From an uncultured Holophaga sp. (GTDB lineage Bacteria > Acidobacteriota > Holophagae > Holophagales > Holophagaceae): DNA of 64,000 nucleotides. Made by a program: the position numbers and the translations under genes. This document shows positions 3,988-13,954 of the stretch, piece by piece. The DNA is taken from NCBI GenBank assembly GCA_963664825.1, contig OY761614.1, positions 2,528,001 through 2,592,000 of the forward strand, given 5' to 3'. Under the pieces are notes generated by a model. It was not told the origin of the DNA, searched no databases, and worked only from the letters and a program-made list of their open reading frames with translations. Positions within the stretch are counted from its first letter, which is position 1; each line of letters begins with the position of its first letter.

Positions 3988-4110
3988 GCCTAACGATACG
4001 AGCTAACCGGCGCTGCCGAAGCGGCGCGGTGAGCGGGGATGAGAAATCGGAAAGAACGGCGAGGACGGTGCCTCGCAGAGGCAGCGTCTAGGTTGAGCGA
4101 CCGGTTAGGC
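3988..4110 (-). repeat. attC site
   Basis: GCCTAAC...GCTAAC (L)...GTTGAG (L)...GTTAGGC, 123 bp imperfect palindrome. Confidence 0.9.
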
Positions 4111-4388
4111 GAGAACGCAGCGTTGGTGCGGGCCGCGATGGTTCGAAGCGATCCGATTGGATTGGCGTTCCTGGACCTGGAAGCTTGCATGGGCAAATCG
4201 GAGAAATGGGCCGAGAAGAGCCGTGCTGCTGAATTGGAAAGGCCGTTGGGCTAGGCGCGTGTTCGAATTGTCGGAGCGTACTCGGAACGATGATAGCGGT
4301 TTTATCGATTAAGTTGACGTGGCTGGATAGTTGGAAGGAAAGCGCTGGGAGAGTTTTGCAGTTCAGCAACGCCAGAAAGCCAGGAGAC
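4111..4388. other. ORF-less gene cassette, copy A
   Basis: Lies between two attC sites; no credible ORF; 12 substitutions versus 9135-9412. Confidence 0.75.
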
Positions 4389-4511
4389 GCCTAACGATTG
4401 GAGTTAACCGGCGCTGCCGAAGCGGCGCGGTGGTGAGAGACGAGAAATCCGAACGCTGATCGAGGACGGTGACTCGCAGAGGCAGCGTCCGGGTTGAACG
4501 ATTGGTTAGGC
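4389..4511 (-). repeat. attC site
   Basis: Same architecture, 123 bp. Confidence 0.9.
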
Positions 4512-5093
4512 ATGCCGGGATGCACGCTTAAGTTGCTTGAGAAGGTCAAGGACATCTCCAGAACAACCGCTGCCGGAGAAATCGAGGGGGCCGACCCCCA
4601 GGGCCAAACCAACCAAGTCACAGTATTGCTGTATGTCTTCTATGAATTTGAGCAACTCTTGTTCTGATGTTTCTCCGAGTGGAGCGCCCTGAACTTGATG
4701 TGCATAGTCAAAATGGGCGATGAATTTATCGCGAGCGGGTTTTAGTTTTTCACCGTATTCAACGATAGAGCCGCCTGTCGTCGATATTTCTGAGGACAAC
4801 AAATCTATGCGCTTGAGTGCCCGATTCAATAGCTGGACAGTGATGTTGTAGTGAATACCATCTTTGCGTTTTGATTCGGGCGGATCAGAAAGTTTACATG
4901 CTTGAAGTATCCAATCTCGCTGAAGAATATTGGCAATGTCGGTAAAAAATGTCGGCGCTGTTTTAGAAAGAATTTCGCGAGATGATTCGTTGAATAATTC
5001 TATATAAGTGTTGTAGTCGCGCCTGAGGCGGATGCAGTGATCTCGGAGATGAGTGAAGATCTCGATGGCGTAATCGGATTCGCTCATTGGCAT
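4506..5093 (-). CDS. Cassette gene: putative HEPN-domain (AbiU2-like) protein
   Basis: Helical protein with RDKFIAHFD (Rx5H) motif; stop codon lies in the attC R'' box. Confidence 0.6.
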   Translation of the reverse strand: MPMSESDYAIEIFTHLRDHCIRLRRDYNTYIELFNESSREILSKTAPTFFTDIANILQRDWILQACKLSDPPESKRKDGIHYNITVQLLNRALKRIDLLSSEISTTGGSIVEYGEKLKPARDKFIAHFDYAHQVQGAPLGETSEQELLKFIEDIQQYCDLVGLALGVGPLDFSGSGCSGDVLDLLKQLKRASRHA

Positions 5094-5215
5094 GCCTAAC
5101 GAGTGAGTTAACCGGCGCTACCGAAGCGGCGCGACGAGGGGAGTGTAGAAATCGGAGCGATTGGTGGTGATTGTAAGAACAAGAGGTAGCGTCCGGGTTG
5201 AACGATTGGTTAGGC
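5094..5215 (-). repeat. attC site
   Basis: GCCTAAC...GTTAGGC, 122 bp. Confidence 0.9.
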
Positions 5216-5243
5216 CGAAATGGGATCAACAACAATGCCAGCT

Positions 5244-5462
5244 TTAAACACCTAATTCAGAACGTAGAGAAGTTAAATATTGAATCGCTGTGTCGAAAAT
5301 TGGCCCGGCACATGCCTTGCAAAAATTTTCGACGTCCCTAAGGCCGTGTTTGACAACGAGGTGCTGTTCGCCTGGAGCAATTTCACAAGAGTAGTGACAA
5401 GTCCTGGTGGCTTTGGCCTTGTCGATTTTGATATTGACGGTAATGTTTTTGCTTTTAGCCAT
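5244..5462 (-). CDS. Cassette gene: small putative zinc-finger protein
   Basis: 72 aa, CHYSC...CKAC; AGGAG RBS upstream. Confidence 0.65.
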   Translation of the reverse strand: MAKSKNITVNIKIDKAKATRTCHYSCEIAPGEQHLVVKHGLRDVENFCKACAGPIFDTAIQYLTSLRSELGV

Positions 5463-5500
5463 GCTTCACTCCTTGAGAGTTGCAGGTTGGTTCGTGAGAG

Positions 5501-5622
5501 GCCTAACGAGTGAGTTAACCGGCGCTACCGAAGCGGCGCGACGATGGGAGTGTAGGAATCAGAGCGATTGGTGGTGGTTGTAAGAACAAGAGGTAGCGTC
5601 CGGGTTGAACGATTGGTTAGGG
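5501..5622 (-). repeat. attC site
   Basis: GCCTAAC...GTTAGGG; R'' matches the CCCTAAC at the start of its own cassette (6036). Confidence 0.9.
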
Positions 5623-5636
5623 CGAAGAGAGACATG

Positions 5637-6017
5637 CTAATTTAATTTGTAAAGGACTGTGAGTTTGAACTTTGCAGCATACGGTTTGCCGTCGATAAGA
5701 GCGGGAAGAAACCTGAATTGCATAGCGAAGGTTTCAGCACTGGCTCTTAATTCAACTGGACCTGATAAGATCTCTGTCTTGATTGGAATCCCCTTGTCAT
5801 CGAGAAGAATCATCACCTCGACTGTTCCGTGGATTCCGAGAGCCTTGGCTTCAGCAGGCTCATCAGGGGCTGGTGGTTGGTATTTAATCTCAACCTGAGT
5901 GAAAGCAAATTTCTTTCCATCCTTATCGTAGTAGGCCTTGGAGGGACGTACATCAGTGCTGGGCTTGGTGCAGGAGATGAGGCCCAAACACATGATGGTA
6001 AGGATTAGACAGCGCAT
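5637..6017 (-). CDS. Cassette gene: lipoprotein with TonB C-terminal domain
   Basis: Lipobox LISC; PAEAKALGIHGTVEV...FRFLPALIDGKP TonB_C pattern. Confidence 0.8.
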   Translation of the reverse strand: MRCLILTIMCLGLISCTKPSTDVRPSKAYYDKDGKKFAFTQVEIKYQPPAPDEPAEAKALGIHGTVEVMILLDDKGIPIKTEILSGPVELRASAETFAMQFRFLPALIDGKPYAAKFKLTVLYKLN

Positions 6018-6035
6018 TAGGTTCCTTAGAATGAG

Positions 6036-6158
6036 CCCTAACGATTGGAGTTAACCGGCACTACCGAAGCGGCGCGTTGAGGGGAGACGAGAAATCGGAA
6101 TGCTGGGAGGGGAAAGTGACTCGCAGAGGTAGCGTCCGAGTTGAACGATTGGTTAGGC
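6036..6158 (-). repeat. attC site
   Basis: CCCTAAC...GTTAGGC. Confidence 0.9.
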
Positions 6159-6173
6159 ACGATGCCGTATATA

Positions 6174-6452
6174 TCAATCTTGAGCTCTGCCGCCCTGGTC
6201 ATATGCAGCGCGTTTCCGCCACAATTTTTGCCCTTTCTCCCAAATAACATCGTCGCCTGTGAGTTTTTTGAACTCTTTCAGGACAGACTTGTCAATCGCG
6301 GTGCCTCCATTTTGATTGAAGTACCAATGGGGCTTACCGAATTTTGTCATTATCTGAACTACAGCAACCTCTTGATACAGGTAATGAACTTTGTTGAGCT
6401 CTTCGAGCATCCACTGAGCTACAGTTTTGGCATCAACTTCTTGCATGATCAC
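6174..6452 (-). CDS. Cassette gene: hypothetical protein (DUF6953-like), second gene of a two-gene cassette
   Basis: 92 aa; YFNQNGGTAIDKSVLKEFKKLT...WRKR pattern; ATGA overlap with the upstream ORF. Confidence 0.65.
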   Translation of the reverse strand: MIMQEVDAKTVAQWMLEELNKVHYLYQEVAVVQIMTKFGKPHWYFNQNGGTAIDKSVLKEFKKLTGDDVIWEKGQKLWRKRAAYDQGGRAQD

Positions 6453-6637
6453 TTCTCTTCGTTTGAGGCTTCAAGAACGCCCTCTATAAAATGATTGGAA
6501 TTTAACTTGGGACCCGCAAACCATTGGCAATGGTATTCAATTGGATCCATATCAGAATAGACATTTGCAACAGTCATTTTTGGGCCTCCAGATTTTAGGC
6601 AAACCTGCTGGCCTGTTTGGAATTTTGTCTTTTTCAT
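6449..6637 (-). CDS. Cassette gene: YodC/DUF2158-family small protein
   Basis: FQTGQQVCLKSGGPKMTV...CQWF motif; GGAGG RBS. Confidence 0.8.
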   Translation of the reverse strand: MKKTKFQTGQQVCLKSGGPKMTVANVYSDMDPIEYHCQWFAGPKLNSNHFIEGVLEASNEEK

Positions 6638-6661
6638 GAAGTACCTCCTGGTTGATAGAGT

Positions 6662-6786
6662 GCCTAACGAAAGGAGTTAACCGGACCAACAGCCGGTGGG
6701 ATGTTCGAGGGGGACGAGAAAGCGGGATGCATGGGGGAGATTGGAAGACTGTGGCTGTTGGGTCCGGGTTGAACGATTGGTTAGGC
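6662..6786 (-). repeat. attC site (variant type shared with 10100)
   Basis: GCCTAAC...CCGGACCAACAGC...GCTGTTGGGTCCGG...GTTAGGC. Confidence 0.9.
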
Positions 6787-7053
6787 CGATGTTGACCATT
6801 TTCGTGATAGGTACCTAGCAAGAAAGAATGTGCCGATATTAAGACAGAAATGCGTAAGAGCCATTTGGAAAGCTTGAAGATGCGTTAGATATTCTTGATC
6901 GCCACCGAGATAGCCAAAGCCGATTGGTATCCGAAATTCCGGGATGTCGGTAACGAACCACACGCGACTTGGGAGAGCCAAGGAGAGGACGAGGAAGGTC
7001 CACCAACACACCCAAACAACCCTCTGTCTTCTCGTTCTTTGTAGGACGGGCAT
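6781..7053 (-). CDS. Cassette gene: small membrane protein
   Basis: 90 aa, two hydrophobic segments; fills the cassette; stop codon in R''. Confidence 0.6.
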   Translation of the reverse strand: MPVLQRTRRQRVVWVCWWTFLVLSLALPSRVWFVTDIPEFRIPIGFGYLGGDQEYLTHLQAFQMALTHFCLNIGTFFLARYLSRKWSTSA

Positions 7054-7059
7054 TGTGAT

Positions 7060-7181
7060 GCCTAACGAGTGAGTTAACCGGCGCTACCGAAGCGGCGCGA
7101 CGAGTGGAGACGAGGAATCGGAATGGCCGATGAGGACGCTGCCTCGCAGAGGTAGCGTCCGGGTTGAACGATTTGTTAGGC
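7060..7181 (-). repeat. attC site
   Basis: GCCTAAC...GTTAGGC. Confidence 0.9.
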
Positions 7182-7198
7182 TGGTGCCGTGCATGAGG

Positions 7199-7345
7199 TC
7201 ATTGCTGGTGTTCGTTGAGTCGCTTTTCTAATTTGCGAACCTTGAAGAAGGCGATGACCCCAAGGATGCCACCGCCAAGGCAGACAACGCCGATAAGGCA
7301 GCCAGGAATCATCAAAACGAGTTCAGTAAGTCCGAGATTGCCCAC
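7199..7345 (-). CDS. Cassette gene: 48-aa single-pass membrane microprotein (not in ORF track)
   Basis: AGGAGG RBS then GTG; MGNLGLTELVLMIPGCLIGVVCLGGGILGVIAFFKVRKLEKRLNEHQQ. Confidence 0.75.
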   Translation of the reverse strand: MGNLGLTELVLMIPGCLIGVVCLGGGILGVIAFFKVRKLEKRLNEHQQ

Positions 7346-7364
7346 TGGGCCTCCTTGAATTGCA

Positions 7365-7487
7365 GCCTAACGATCGGAGCTAACCGGCGCTGCCGAAGCG
7401 GCGCGGAGCGAGAGTGACGAGAAATCCGAACGATGGTGAGGACGGTGCCTCGCAGAGGCAGCGTCCGGGTTGAGCGATTGGTTAGGC
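7365..7487 (-). repeat. attC site
   Basis: GCCTAAC...GTTAGGC. Confidence 0.9.
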
Positions 7488-7488
7488 A

Positions 7489-8046
7489 TTAGATGGCAAC
7501 AGGTTCGAGCATGAGTTCAATTTCAGGAGGCAAATTCCTTGGTTGCAAAATTGAACCGAGCTTTTTTTTGAGAAATGTAACGAGAATCCAAATAGAGATT
7601 CGCATGTCGGTAAGAACAAACCAGAATTTTTGATTATCAAGGGCTGATCCGCTTAATGATTCTGGATTCAGTTTTTCAGCATGGCTGGAAAACGAGTTCA
7701 ATTGAGCCGTGATTTCCTGAACGAGTCGCTCAAGCGAACGATCGGACCAAACGCCCCGAGACAAAGTTCGGATCTCTTTTCTAACTTCATAAAGGCTTGT
7801 CATTGCGTGTTTAGGGCACTCATCTTGGCCGCATTCGTAGAAAAGGCGACGTGAATCAATTTCATTAACAATATCGTGGACTTTGTTTAAATCTGGATCC
7901 TTGATTTCAATACTTCCAATCTTGAAGCAACCGTTTGCGGCGGCTTGTCGGAAAACGGAAACCAGATTTTTCATCAATCCTTCTGAACGAGCCAAGAGCA
8001 TTGCATCTGTGATATTCGCATCGACATGAAAATTTCTGAGGCTCAT
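7489..8046 (-). CDS. Cassette gene: hypothetical protein (possibly DUF6650-like)
   Basis: 185 aa, AGGAG RBS; DSRRLFY...SLYEVRKEI motif. Confidence 0.6.
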   Translation of the reverse strand: MSLRNFHVDANITDAMLLARSEGLMKNLVSVFRQAAANGCFKIGSIEIKDPDLNKVHDIVNEIDSRRLFYECGQDECPKHAMTSLYEVRKEIRTLSRGVWSDRSLERLVQEITAQLNSFSSHAEKLNPESLSGSALDNQKFWFVLTDMRISIWILVTFLKKKLGSILQPRNLPPEIELMLEPVAI

Positions 8047-8064
8047 CTGGATCTCCTGGGTAAT

Positions 8065-8110
8065 GCCTAACTTTGAATTGGACGAACCCGACGAAGTGCT
8101 TCGTAGTTCG
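8065..8110 (-). other. Second attI-like site inside the array
   Basis: GCCTAACTTTGAATTGGACG versus GCCTAACTTTAAATTGGACG at 10641 (19/20); no attC structure here. Confidence 0.75.
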
Positions 8111-8291
8111 CCTAATCGGGGTTGAGTGGAAGTGTAAATGTTGACAGAACCGTGAAGCTAGAAAAAGGGGGAAGCGGAATAGGCAGACAGGAAATGGGCG
8201 GATGGGAGGGCGTTTTGGGAGGGGAGCCGAAGGAGACAAGTTTCATATGAGTACGCCCGAAATTTTAGGCAAATCGCGCCTCGGGTAAGCG

Positions 8292-8413
8292 GCCTAACGA
8301 GTGAGTTAACCGGCGCTACCGAAGCGGCGCGTTGAAGGGAGACGAGGAATCAGGGAGTTTGGTGGGGAAAGTGACTCGCAGAGGTAGCGTCCGGGTTGAA
8401 CGATTGGTTAGGC
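8292..8413 (-). repeat. attC site
   Basis: GCCTAAC...GTTAGGC. Confidence 0.9.
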
Positions 8414-8427
8414 AGCGCGGGAGACCC

Positions 8428-8988
8428 CTAGAGTGTATGAAGAAAATCGAGGTCGATTTGGAACGCCTTTGTTGTTGGATTGGCCGAAATCAACTCTGTG
8501 TAGATCGCTATCAAAGCGGACTTGGAAAGGCATGGCGGTGGTGGTTCGACTAGGGAACAATGACCACCAAGAATCCTCACTCGATAGACAAGCTGAATCG
8601 GCCTAACATCCTTCATTAGCTTTCTCGGGTTCGTACCGTAATTCCCCTTACCTTCTGTTCTTGCTAGTTGTGAGTAATCCACGGCAACGGAAAAAATACC
8701 TTTGCTGGAAGTTACCGTAGGCAAAACTTTATAACTATCGACAACGAAAAGTGGGTCGGCGTCAGGGAAGAAACACAAAGCCAGAGGCTCTTTTCGTATC
8801 TTGCGTTTAAGAGCATTCGTCATGTATATGTTGCCTTGATTTCTCGTTGGTATTTTGCCTTCAAACTCTTTCTGAATGATCCCCTGAACAAATGCGCTTG
8901 CTCGTTCTGAATTGCTGAGGGGTATGGCAAGCTGAGCGACGAGGCACTGGACCACAAGAATGGTTGGAATCAATTGATGGCCTTTCAT
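8428..8988 (-). CDS. Cassette gene: putative exported hypothetical protein
   Basis: 186 aa with hydrophobic N-terminus; fills the cassette. Confidence 0.65.
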   Translation of the reverse strand: MKGHQLIPTILVVQCLVAQLAIPLSNSERASAFVQGIIQKEFEGKIPTRNQGNIYMTNALKRKIRKEPLALCFFPDADPLFVVDSYKVLPTVTSSKGIFSVAVDYSQLARTEGKGNYGTNPRKLMKDVRPIQLVYRVRILGGHCSLVEPPPPCLSKSALIAIYTELISANPTTKAFQIDLDFLHTL

Positions 8989-9011
8989 ATTTGGGTAATC
9001 GTCGGGACGAT

Positions 9012-9134
9012 GCCTAACGATCGGAGCTAACCGGCGCTGCCGAAGCGGCGCGGTGAGCGGGGATGAGAAATCGGAAAGAATGGCGAGGACGGTGCCTCGC
9101 AGAGGCAGCGTCTAGGTTGAGCGACCGGTTAGGC
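9012..9134 (-). repeat. attC site
   Basis: Near-identical to 3988-4110. Confidence 0.9.
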
Positions 9135-9412
9135 GAGAACGCAGCGCTGGTGCGGGCCGCAATGGTTCGAAGCGATCCGATTGGGTTGGCGTTCCTGGAC
9201 CTGGAAGCTTGCATGGGCAAATCGGAGAAATGGGCTGAGAAGAGCCGTGTTGCTGAATTGGAAAGGCCGTTGGGCTAGGCGCGTGTTCGAATTGTTGGAG
9301 CGTACTCGGAACGATGATAGCGGTTTTATCGATTAAGTTGGCGTGGCTGGATAGCTGGAAGGAAAACGTCGGGAGAGTCTTGCAGTTCAGCAACGCCAGA
9401 AAGCCAGGAGAC
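9135..9412. other. ORF-less gene cassette, copy B
   Basis: About 96% identical to 4111-4388. Confidence 0.75.
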
Positions 9413-9534
9413 GCCTAACGAGTGAGTTAACCGGCGCTACCGAAGCGGCGCGACGAGGGGAGTGTAGAAATCGGAGCGATTGGTGGTGGTTGTAAGAACC
9501 AGAGGTAGCGTCTGGGTTGAACGATTGGTTAGGC
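9413..9534 (-). repeat. attC site
   Basis: Near-identical to 5094-5215. Confidence 0.9.
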
Positions 9535-10068
9535 CGCTCTAGATAGTGAGATTAATTCGGATTTTATTGTTTTTACAGTGGTTAAAAAATTTGTTATCGC
9601 TTTTTGAGATGGCTCCAGAAGCTCAGTGTTGATTTTGACGCCATTTTCCATTGCTTTGGCATAATTAATGTTATACTTGGCCATCTCTCTGAAATATTCG
9701 ACAATTTTGTCCCAGTGTGGAATGAGTTCGGGAAAATTTGAATTGATCCTTATTTCAATTATGCCAAGTTGAATATCGCTGTCTGTTGCAATGCCATTTA
9801 CAGAGTCAAGATATTTTTGCCACGATATTTGTTCTTTTAGTAATGAAATAAAAGACAAGTGTCTTGTGACAGTAGATCCATTCCATATGTAAATAGAATT
9901 ATAAATTTGTTCTAGCATTTCAACACGCTGTCTCCTTTTCTCTCGCTTGTTTTCAATATCGAATTGGATTTGAAGGCGTTTGAGATTGGCTTTATTGGTC
10001 AGGTGAGAAGCAAGAAATGCTGAACCAGTAGCCAGGATAGTTGTGATCAAGGTCTGAATGAAAGACAT
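9529..10068 (-). CDS. Cassette gene: N-terminal TM helix, coiled coil and helical domain
   Basis: Low-GC ORF; GGAG RBS before MSFIQ; stop codon in R''. Confidence 0.7.
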   Translation of the reverse strand: MSFIQTLITTILATGSAFLASHLTNKANLKRLQIQFDIENKREKRRQRVEMLEQIYNSIYIWNGSTVTRHLSFISLLKEQISWQKYLDSVNGIATDSDIQLGIIEIRINSNFPELIPHWDKIVEYFREMAKYNINYAKAMENGVKINTELLEPSQKAITNFLTTVKTIKSELISLSRAA

Positions 10069-10099
10069 CGCTATTCTCCACATAGACTTTGACGTTGCG

Positions 10100-10224
10100 G
10101 CCTAACGAAAGGAGTTAACCGGACCAACAGCTGGTGGGATGAGCGAAGGGGACGAGAAAGCGGGATGCATGGGGGAGATTGGAAGATCGTGGCTGTTGGG
10201 TCCGGGTTGAACGATTGGTTAGGC
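10100..10224 (-). repeat. attC site (variant type shared with 6662)
   Basis: GCCTAAC...GTTAGGC. Confidence 0.9.
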
Positions 10225-10239
10225 CGTGAGGAAGACTCT

Positions 10240-10617
10240 TTATATTGTCCAACCAACTGAAGCTGCATCTTTTTGTAGCGAGGCGATGCGAGCTTGTTCT
10301 TTTGTAATTCTGGCTGTATACCAATCACGCATTAGTTCCGCATCTTGCTGCGTATCTATGATGAAGTAGCCTCGCGTGCCATGATCGAACGAGCCAATGA
10401 AATAACCATTTTCGCGAGAATTTTTCAATAACCCTTGCTGAAAAGCGTTTTGAGAAAGTGTGTAACCGCAAGCTGCGAGGTGAATTTCGATCATCTCCCA
10501 TGGTTGCGCATTAGCGCTCCCGACAGCATTCGCAATGAGGAAATCTAAGATGCACTTATGGACTACGCTTGTGCGTGGATCGTTTGCTTTTCTTTGAACT
10601 GCTGGAAGAAGTGACAT
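10240..10617 (-). CDS. First cassette gene: putative winged-helix protein
   Basis: 125 aa from MSLLP with AAGGAG RBS; IGSFDHGTRGYFIIDT wing-like motif. Confidence 0.65.
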   Translation of the reverse strand: MSLLPAVQRKANDPRTSVVHKCILDFLIANAVGSANAQPWEMIEIHLAACGYTLSQNAFQQGLLKNSRENGYFIGSFDHGTRGYFIIDTQQDAELMRDWYTARITKEQARIASLQKDAASVGWTI

Positions 10618-10640
10618 TTTTTCTCCTTGGATAAAGTGAG

Positions 10641-10690
10641 GCCTAACTTTAAATTGGACGTACCACGGAACGGGTAGGGTGGTACGTGTT
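10641..10690 (-). other. attI site
   Basis: Minus strand CGTCCAATTTAAAG^TTAGGC between intI and the first cassette; adjacent palindrome ACGTACCAC/GTGGTACGT. Confidence 0.85.
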
Positions 10691-10899
10691 TGCGGGGGAG
10701 AGGGGAGGGGGGGCGGTACGCATTTGGGGGGACTTAGGCGAACGGAGGGAGGGGGCTTGACGGGCGAAAAAAAAGCGTCATCCTTCCAACGCGCTGAGTT
10801 GTGTGGCATGAACGGTTTCCAAGCTTAGCGCATTAGGCGAACCCATGCAGGGGGGTGTTTGCCATGGGTGACGAGATTAGGCAGACAGGAAAGGAGGGG

Positions 10900-11883
10900 A
10901 TGGAGGCCGGAACCGGCCCCGCGCGCCGCTTCCTCGATGGGCTCCGGGAGGAACTCCGGGTCCGGCACTACAGCCTCCGGACGGAGGATGCCTACGTGGA
11001 TTGGGTGCGTCGCTTCATCCTCTTCCACGGGAAGCGCCATCCGAGGGAGATGGGGGCCCCGGAGGTCCAGGCCTTCCTGAGCCATCTGGCGATGGCGCGA
11101 AACGTGGCGCCCTCCACCCAGAACCAAGCCAAGGCCGCCCTGCTGTTCCTGTACCGGGTGGTCCTCGGCGACAGGCTCCCCTGGATGCGGGAGATCGCCC
11201 AGGCCAAGGAACATGCGCGCCTCCCGGTGGTCCTGACCCCCGGCGAGGTGAGGATCCTCTTCGATCAGATGGAGGGCACCATGGCCCTCATCGCCCGGGT
11301 GCTGTATGGAACCGGCCTGCGCTTGATGGAGGGGCTGCGACTGCGGGTGAAGGACCTCGAGTTTGAGCGCCGGGAGATCATTGTGAGGGAAGGCAAGGGG
11401 GGCAAGGATCGGGTCACCATGCTTCCCGAAAGCCTCCTGGTGCCTCTCCAGCGGCACCTGCTGAAGGTCCGGGCCCTGCATGAGCAGGACCTGGCCGAGG
11501 GCTTCGGCGAGGTGTGGCTGCCCGACGCCCTGGAGGTGAAGAGTTCCACGGCGGCGAGGGCCTGGGGCTGGCAGTGGGTGTTCCCCTCGGCCCAGCGTGC
11601 GGCCGATCCCAGGTCGGGCGCGATCCGCCGCCACCACATCCATCCGGAAAGCGTCCAGAAGGCGGTGCGGATCGCGGGACGGGCCGGCGAGCTGGTCAAG
11701 CCGGTCACGCCCCATGTGCTGCGCCATTCCTTCGCCACCCACCTGCTGGCGGCGGGCCATGATATCCGCACCGTCCAGGAGCTGCTGGGGCACAAGGACG
11801 TGGAGACCACCATGATCTACACCCATGTCCTCAATCGGGGCGGCCTGGGGGTTCCCAGTCCCCTGGACATCCTGGGAGGCTGA
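10900..11883 (+). CDS. intI: Integron integrase
   Basis: [30 protein letters not shown], IntI-specific patch (WGWQWVFPS...[11 protein letters not shown]), [29 protein letters not shown]. Confidence 0.97.
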
Positions 11884-13721: not shown

Positions 13722-13786
13722 GGGGTCTCCTTCGAGAATGGCCGGAGGGGGCTGCTCACCCGATTCCAAACCAGCCAGGTTTGTCC

Positions 13787-13870
13787 GGTGAGCGCGGTTG
13801 GATCAGGTTGACCCGCAGGTCAGGTTCCGAGCCTAGGACGCCTCATGGGCATCTCGCAGCGCTCCTCGGA
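13787..13870 (-). promoter_or_regulatory. SAH riboswitch
   Basis: CCGAGGAGCGCTGC...AGGCTCGG...AACCGCGCTCACC upstream of ahcY. Confidence 0.88.
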
Positions 13871-13954
13871 CAGGACTCTGATGATAATCGATTCCGGATT
13901 GCGACAAGGGGGAGAGTCCCGGAGGTGGTACATTCGCCCTGATCGGGGGCTGGA

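Follow-up and report, generated by a model that had tools for sequence, protein, structure and literature searches.

A gene-less attI unit within the cassette array of a Holophaga integron is probably a mobile, integrase-less cassette

Integrons are generally pictured as one fixed docking site beside the integrase gene (intI), served by mobile attC cassettes; genes enter at one end, and distal genes lie far from the promoter. The array found in our window, the 64,000-nucleotide stretch of DNA analysed here, raises the question of what an attI site is doing in its interior. A preliminary description had pointed to a segment of about 230 bp between the attC at 8292 and a cassette with a 185-aa ORF. 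It read the segment as the attI and leader of a paralogous integron captured into the array, giving a second insertion point possibly with an internal Pc promoter, or else as the mark of a fusion of two arrays. Based on comparative sequence analysis, we consider the unit likely to be a mobile attI cassette that lacks an integrase of its own and is moved by the resident IntI, because related copies recur between different neighbours in 13 genomes. The features of the locus are as follows.

3988 to 10647, minus strand: cassette array with 12 attC sites of 122-125 bp, 13 cassette units and the module
7371 to 8070, minus strand: complete canonical cassette (185-aa ORF at 7489-8046), docked at the internal attI
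8065 to 8071, minus strand: R box of the internal attI, GTTAGGC, with the probable crossover between 8071 and 8070
8071 to 8297, minus strand: candidate gene-less attI cassette, 227 bp from crossover to crossover, unit number 5 counted from the resident attI
8077 to 8087, plus strand: L box of the internal attI with a conserved extension, 5 nt from the R box
8106 to 8116, minus strand: distal IntI-box-like repeat, oriented as the R box and inverted relative to the L box
8134 to 8161, no strand assigned: conserved block GTAA.TGTTGA...CCGT.G..CTA, diagnostic for this platform class
8180 to 8204, plus strand: putative relic of an intI start region, with a box common to the resident leader, a broken -10-like hexamer and an ATG at 8202
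8255 to 8273, plus strand: conserved tail motif
8292 to 8413, minus strand: attC of the preceding cassette (140.8 bits), whose R' crossover, between 8298 and 8297, is the module's upstream junction
10641 to 10899, minus strand: resident attI core and its leader of the "long" type; the leader's PintI-like TTGAC..N17 motif is absent from all modules
10900 to 11883, plus strand: resident integron integrase, an open frame of 327 aa (TIGR02249, 453 bits), the only intI of the genome

Our analysis confirmed that the internal site is built like an attI. Its core (8065-8084) is identical to the resident core (10641-10660) at 19 of 20 positions, as had been described, and it has an R box of the form GTTRRRY, from which an inverted L box is separated by 5 nt. 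Across the 3.47-Mb genome the segment's 20-mer occurs within 3 mismatches only at 8065, at 10641 and at G000:C1:323675 (minus strand), the last being the head of a distant attC cluster; by chance, 1e-5 core matches of this quality would be expected behind the 13 R boxes of the array. The 15-mer shared by 8180-8194 and the intI leader (10878-10892) was also confirmed, and within 1 mismatch it is confined genome-wide to these two places (chance expectation 3e-4). Both palindromes noted beside the cores exist and fold, though weakly (z -0.8 to -2.0), the L box and the distal repeat at 8106-8116 making up the outer part of the one in the segment. The TTAGGC(G/A)AA boxes are present at 8265 (plus) and 8115 (minus), but they are not significant on their own because the genome holds 12 copies of this 9-mer. 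Roles were assigned to the attI boxes from their position and by analogy with attI1, and on this analogy the distal repeat is likely an accessory (DR-type) binding site. The possibility that the segment is itself an attC was rejected. A covariance model built from the array's 12 attC sites, which themselves score 113-141 bits, reached a maximum of 5.2 bits inside it, in agreement with the preliminary description; folds of 8065-8126 left the R box unpaired on both strands, unlike a true attC, and the R''/R' and L''/L' hairpin pairing is absent.

The internal attI does not adjoin an intI; 2.6 kb and four cassettes separate it from the only one in the genome. A genome search for a second intI or a remnant linked to the site returned that single gene, and the other tyrosine recombinases, considered as signs of a paralogous donor integron, match only in part, so this candidate was dropped. 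The earlier reading holds as regards an attI with leader from a different integron subtype, and is unsupported as regards a paralogous donor in this genome.

The limits of the segment, placed earlier at 8065 and 8297, required a correction. Positions 8065-8070 are part of the next cassette, beyond the internal attI crossover, and the unit proper is the 227 bp between the crossovers at 8071-8297. In cassette orientation its first base, 8297, comes right behind the G of the attC at 8292-8413, and its last, 8071, is the G of the internal core. The cassette at 7371-8070 appears to be whole from its own 5' end, because the opening 11 nt are an inverse match to its own R'' side; the same match is 7 nt if the 227-bp unit is counted as that cassette's 5' part, and other cassettes of the array give 7-10. 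The absence of an ORF, as claimed earlier, holds for a self-contained gene, but a 110-aa TTG frame (7907-8239, without a Pfam hit) and a 28-aa frame (from 8202) both start inside the unit. Rfam returned zero families for the region. Contigs of two public runs (X1 and X3) bridge cassette, segment and attC over 7447-8320 with zero differences, and the unit is therefore not an assembly artefact, although one of these runs could be the sample from which the genome came.

The resident integron is sedentary, in a genome that is a single contig, and its integrase has catalytic motifs that we take to be intact. IS110 and IS66 elements lie at the array's distal end. Among the cassettes, ORF 4506-5093 encodes a HEPN AbiU2 protein with a possible role in phage defence, ORF 5637-6017 a TonB C-terminal protein, and ORFs 6174-6452 and 6449-6637 a two-gene DUF2158 and DUF6953 unit. 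One cassette is present twice (9012-9419 and 3988-4395, 96% identical), carrying a 93-aa TTG frame without a Pfam hit. The resident leader has repeated L-box-like motifs at 10734, 10833 and 10877 around its PintI-like promoter, conserved in long leaders, and IntI autoregulation is possible. Elsewhere in the window, an ordinary SAH riboswitch lies upstream of ahcY (13783-13873). Outside it, the attC cluster at G000:C1:323538-328764 is a CALIN, the name for attC clusters that lack intI and may be served by an integrase in trans (Cury et al. 2016, PMC4889954). An integrase-less platform of the module's class, matching the segment at 91/140, stands at its head. IS66 copies lie within and next to the cluster, which also includes a hexapeptide-repeat acetyltransferase-like gene, identified by eye. 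A second attC cluster (G000:C1:2233745-2236543), in which an attI head was not detected and the first attC is truncated, adjoins a phage-type integrase-like gene, also identified by eye, and a single attC lies at G000:C1:885152-885269.

The case for mobility comes from 133 family genomes, a family we take to be the Holophagaceae because the closest titled relatives are Holophagaceae at 76-82% identity. An attI core pattern matched 112 sites in 63 of these genomes, compared with 2 for a reversed control. A full intI lay within 700 bp in 36 cases, 51 cores headed an attC cluster without intI, 4 were array-internal, and 21 were neither, many of them near contig ends. A platform model trained on 23 platform sequences had matches in 66 of the 133 genomes and added copies with variant cores. 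From these searches 20 cassette-like units of 179-316 bp were recovered in 13 genomes and three genera (g1, g5 and g13), leaving aside two further g5 copies at contig ends (the second hit in L236, and L237). In 17 of the 20 the upstream junction and the crossover coincide exactly, and wherever an internal attI has an upstream site, that site is within 179-316 bp. Crossover boxes are intact at both ends in 16 units; the rest are three in G002 with damaged upstream boxes (G002c, of about 295 bp, is a unit of this genome) and one in G093 with a damaged core. Eight g5 copies of 214-215 bp are 85-95% identical to each other, yet their flanking cassettes are 40-57% alike across 28 pairs, except for one pair at 69% in which both abut the resident leader. 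Such near-identical copies thus have different cassettes both upstream and downstream. They also differ in the six bases past the downstream crossover, as would be expected if these are supplied by the next cassette. In G070 (L229, L230) and likewise in G064 (L231, L232), one copy follows an attC and a second abuts an intact resident attI. The core is shorter by one base in the g5 copies that sit at intact attI sites, a change seen in 10 of the 19 units whose cores were compared. Many of the 20 units may be inactive, given the four damaged crossover boxes and these ten shortened cores.

The unit in our window appears to be an old member of this group and not a twin of any other. It shares the tail motif, at 26-27 nt from the upstream crossover, with G119, G093 and the eight g5 copies (11 modules in two genera), and is 60-64% identical to them, with 64% as the best full-length value. 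No near-identical twin was found among the family genomes, and recent movement of this particular copy has no genome support. Zero matches were obtained in plasmids, phages and viral contigs, and the platform model matched none of 24 genomes from the two other families of the class. In G007, the 60 kb examined of a very large array (G007:C1:744000-801000, L131-L133; at least 116 attC-model hits) include three different internal attI modules plus a stacked head.

Platforms of the module class are also found close to intI. Such a platform lies about 445-620 bp from intI, before a long leader, in G001, G002, G095 and G154, and in G007 a related subtype is likewise stacked ahead of the long leader near intI. 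The long leaders behind these five stacked platforms have no match to the core pattern, and an eroded core is visible at the stack junction in G001 and G002; the added site is the sole intact attI there. Stacks may persist only once one site decays, since IntI1 excised an attI1-aadB-attI1 arrangement at 100% (PMC12901181). Integrase-less attI-headed arrays occur at shared chromosomal loci across species in several flank clusters (e.g., L070, L074, L083, L093, L099, L104, L113, L243 and L259), and some attI-headed CALINs are thus sedentary and inherited.

With regard to ancestry, comparison of 30 intI-upstream regions revealed two layouts, and the intI-linked sites comprise 26 with "long" and 6 with "short" leaders. 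In long leaders, to which the resident one belongs, the core is about 260-300 bp from intI, and the PintI-like TTGAC..N17 motif is present in 24 of 29 long or stacked leaders and in none of 19 modules. In all six intact short-leader integrons the intI start codon is 132-135 nt from the core, and five have a TAAAAT-like hexamer 7 nt before it, a position that suggests a leaderless PintI. In L039, L041, L043, L058 and L061 this hexamer adjoins an IntI-box-like motif, and the PintI could possibly be leaderless and self-repressed. The segment has an ATG start motif at offset 137 with the corresponding hexamer broken. It is identical to the resident leader at 76/140 positions, and to relatives' integrase-less or stacked platforms at 103-107/140, the best being 107/140 over the platform part. 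Homology to intI-upstream regions, whose absence had been named as a ground for rejecting a captured leader, is present: short-type intI leaders are matched over their full length by the platform model, at 34-39 bits. Of the model's 48 matches at 50 bits or above, the six nearest to an intI are about 445-560 bp from it, and none is at the short-leader distance. All eight g5 copies have a frame from the ATG that resembles an IntI N-terminal motif (e.g., MKRVLEQLE), at shuffle p<=0.014 in seven of these related copies. Such a relic was detectable neither in this copy (p=0.58) nor in 11 other non-g5 modules. Four loci, L108, L127, L253 and L255, hold short-leader integrons in decay that retain pieces of intI. 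Taken together, the start motif at offset 137, the IntI-like frames of g5 and these decaying integrons suggest that the platform class probably descends from a short-leader integron in which intI was lost immediately past its start codon. On present comparisons the segment would be the leader of this different subtype, from the attI core to the old intI start codon, plus the conserved tail.

Apparent internal deletions of intI were seen in two loci: in L020 (G004:C175) the 5' end of a long-leader intI is joined to its 3' end, and L255 is similar with a short leader. Two proposals about the tail were examined. As a coding intI remnant (MSTPEILGKSRLG) it is unsupported in this copy, by the same p value, and it is conserved as a DNA motif. 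The idea that the distal box of an older, now eroded attI gave rise to the 5' end is no more than a guess; the tail at 8255-8273 bears a weak likeness to an eroded second attI core, but a tail model hit three attI-like cores with E of only 0.18-0.99.

The internal Pc promoter suggested earlier found no support in this copy, where no sigma-70 promoter reached threshold in either direction; a single weak candidate (8/12) lies near its 5' end. The scan was also empty for the g5 copy L231 and for the resident leader, which indicates that it is insensitive here, and in silico promoter prediction is reported to be unreliable. A Pc is plausible in seven of the eight g5 copies, where a sigma-70-like pair scoring 8-9 of 12 lies 71 nt ahead of the crossover; the present copy is without the g5 -10 hexamer. 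For comparison, the Pc of V. cholerae is placed 65 bp upstream of attIA (PMC8876359). The block at 8134-8161 was considered as an IHF site or a sigma-70 promoter and rejected, since it does not match the spacing of IHF sites and no promoter was found there.

We propose that IntI would recombine the internal attI with the attC or attI upstream of it, releasing a small circle with one attI. This circle could then enter any attC, through the favoured attI x attC reaction, to give the order attC-module-attI-next cassette, and would more rarely enter an attI. While in place, it would offer incoming cassettes a second docking point, as had been proposed, and provide a handle for excising blocks of the array. 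Reactions of attI with attI are real, but 3-4 orders of magnitude rarer than those with attC (PMC4792948). IntI1 is reported to have excised attC-aadB-delta-attI2-238 at 20/80% and to have inserted such cassettes at attI1 (PMC12901181). Comparison with contigs from 4 of 23 public runs showed no excised circle or skipped joint for the unit among the 15 of 31 joints listed; RNA runs contained no more than 4-7% of the sequence words. In run X4 the module is alone on a 262-bp contig (8049-8309) with a depth of 123.5, compared with 51-70 for its neighbours, and in run X5 a contig covers 8050-8331 while 7629-7922 is without cover. This pattern hints at other neighbours, but the depth is no copy number and the hole proves nothing, so we do not count it as evidence.

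Other explanations must be weighed against mobility. It could be argued that two arrays were joined once and that the segment is the dead head of the distal one. Integrase-less platforms of this class do head many CALINs (51 of the 112 cores), the CALIN head L092 (106/140) is one of the two best-scoring relatives of this copy, and a head with its array could enter en bloc through one crossover at the tail. We nevertheless consider a fusion scar very improbable, and the recurrence of the unit has largely refuted it already. Identical attC types and the 96% duplicate cassette lie on both sides of the segment, the unit has precise ends in 13 genomes with a fixed distance from junction to tail motif, and near-identical copies differ in their cassettes on both sides; a one-off capture falls with it.

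The unit could also move with IntI playing no part and its attI inert, if attC repeats, or platforms, underwent homologous recombination or gene conversion with one another. The attC sites agree at about 83% of positions over 123 bp, and L243 looks like a chimera, with the module subtype in its first ~125 nt and the flank of a sedentary CALIN locus. However, attC homology cannot put a unit exactly at a resident attI (L230, L232), nor can it make a switch of the downstream cassette coincide with the crossover, where the shared stretch is only about 7 nt, and we hold this route to be scarcely credible. A subtler proposal accepts a gene-less promoter or spacer cassette, and has it recombine as a short, aberrant single-stranded attC hairpin instead of a double-stranded attI. 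In its favour, the L box and the distal box form a co-varying inverted repeat (7.18 vs 6.83 complementary positions, 0 of 2000 shuffles, with kinship uncontrolled), counted over the 82 of 112 family attI sites with a recognisable distal box and excluding the other 30. The stems in the spacer are slightly longer than in shuffled sequences (2.34 vs 1.93). The covariation fits protein boxes equally well, the unpaired R box and the noise-level attC scores given above speak against a hairpin, and intI-linked attI sites share the same box layout. The promoter part of this proposal draws on the g5 sigma-70-like pairs and on a preprint reporting that most gene-less Vibrio cassettes are promoters (10.1101/2023.11.21.568050); against it, this copy is without the g5 -10 hexamer. 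A promoter role is in any case compatible with a mobile attI cassette, so that the hairpin mechanism is the actual competitor, and we judge it highly unlikely.

If the mobile attI cassette is real, a conserved, gene-less attI would give several entry points to a large array and allow blocks of cassettes to move. It would also offer a testable route to the origin of CALINs and to the replacement of attI within lineages. The family then presents a natural series of modules, some placed at an attC or an intact attI, others stacked on an eroded attI or heading CALINs, and annotation tools that seek attI only beside intI would miss such units. More tentatively, the integrase-less heads could be an old non-autonomous lineage, either MITE-like parasites or helpers of IntI, which circulates as gene-less attI cassettes, seeds CALINs and replaces eroded resident attI sites. 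We regard this wider scenario as possible but rather doubtful; were it true, the "fixed" platform would be renewed through cassette traffic.

In mainly open literature we found no account of attI cassettes that lack a gene, keep the full platform and are conserved between genera in chromosomal integrons, nor of CALINs that such platforms commonly head, nor of this family's integrons. The survey that described CALINs notes that a search for attI was not feasible in most integrons (PMC4889954); here, 51 of 112 attI cores head CALINs, many with the module's platform class. Compared with the attI1 model (PMC12901181), the unit has the same R box, 5-nt spacer, L box, upstream R-box repeat and leader reaching to the intI start. 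Unlike that platform, it has no intI behind it, lies inside an array between two crossovers, and yielded neither Pc nor PintI in this copy. It is similar to the promoter cassettes of Vibrio superintegrons (Blanco et al., bioRxiv 10.1101/2023.11.21.568050) in being gene-less, cassette-sized, resident in large chromosomal arrays and potentially able to drive downstream genes.

Those Vibrio promoter cassettes are ordinary attC cassettes. The unit here, by contrast, ends in an attI, and its promoter role is a candidate one. The closest likeness is to the "unusual" delta-attI-type cassettes of class 1 and 2 integrons (Gonzales Machuca et al. 2026, PMC12901181). These too are array units with an attI-derived site instead of an attC (attC-unit-attI or attI-unit-attI), were shown to be excised and inserted by IntI1, and in one type keep 244 nt of the attI2 region. 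They carry an ORF, with the attI piece replacing the attC at R'', whereas the unit here has no self-contained gene. Seven of their eight types keep just 14-18 nt, compared with a whole platform to the old intI start codon here, and their attI pieces are 100% identical to the current attI1 or attI2, compared with a non-resident subtype. All are in mobile integrons, in contrast to units in sedentary chromosomal integrons that have diverged to about 60% across genera and whose platform class also heads CALINs. In the locus described here an attI-derived site stands in place of an attC at the unit's 3' end. It is neither a complete integron nor an attC cassette, and is possibly a promoter cassette; it would work as delta-attI-type cassettes do, although it has no ORF and its attI is not a shortened version of the resident site.
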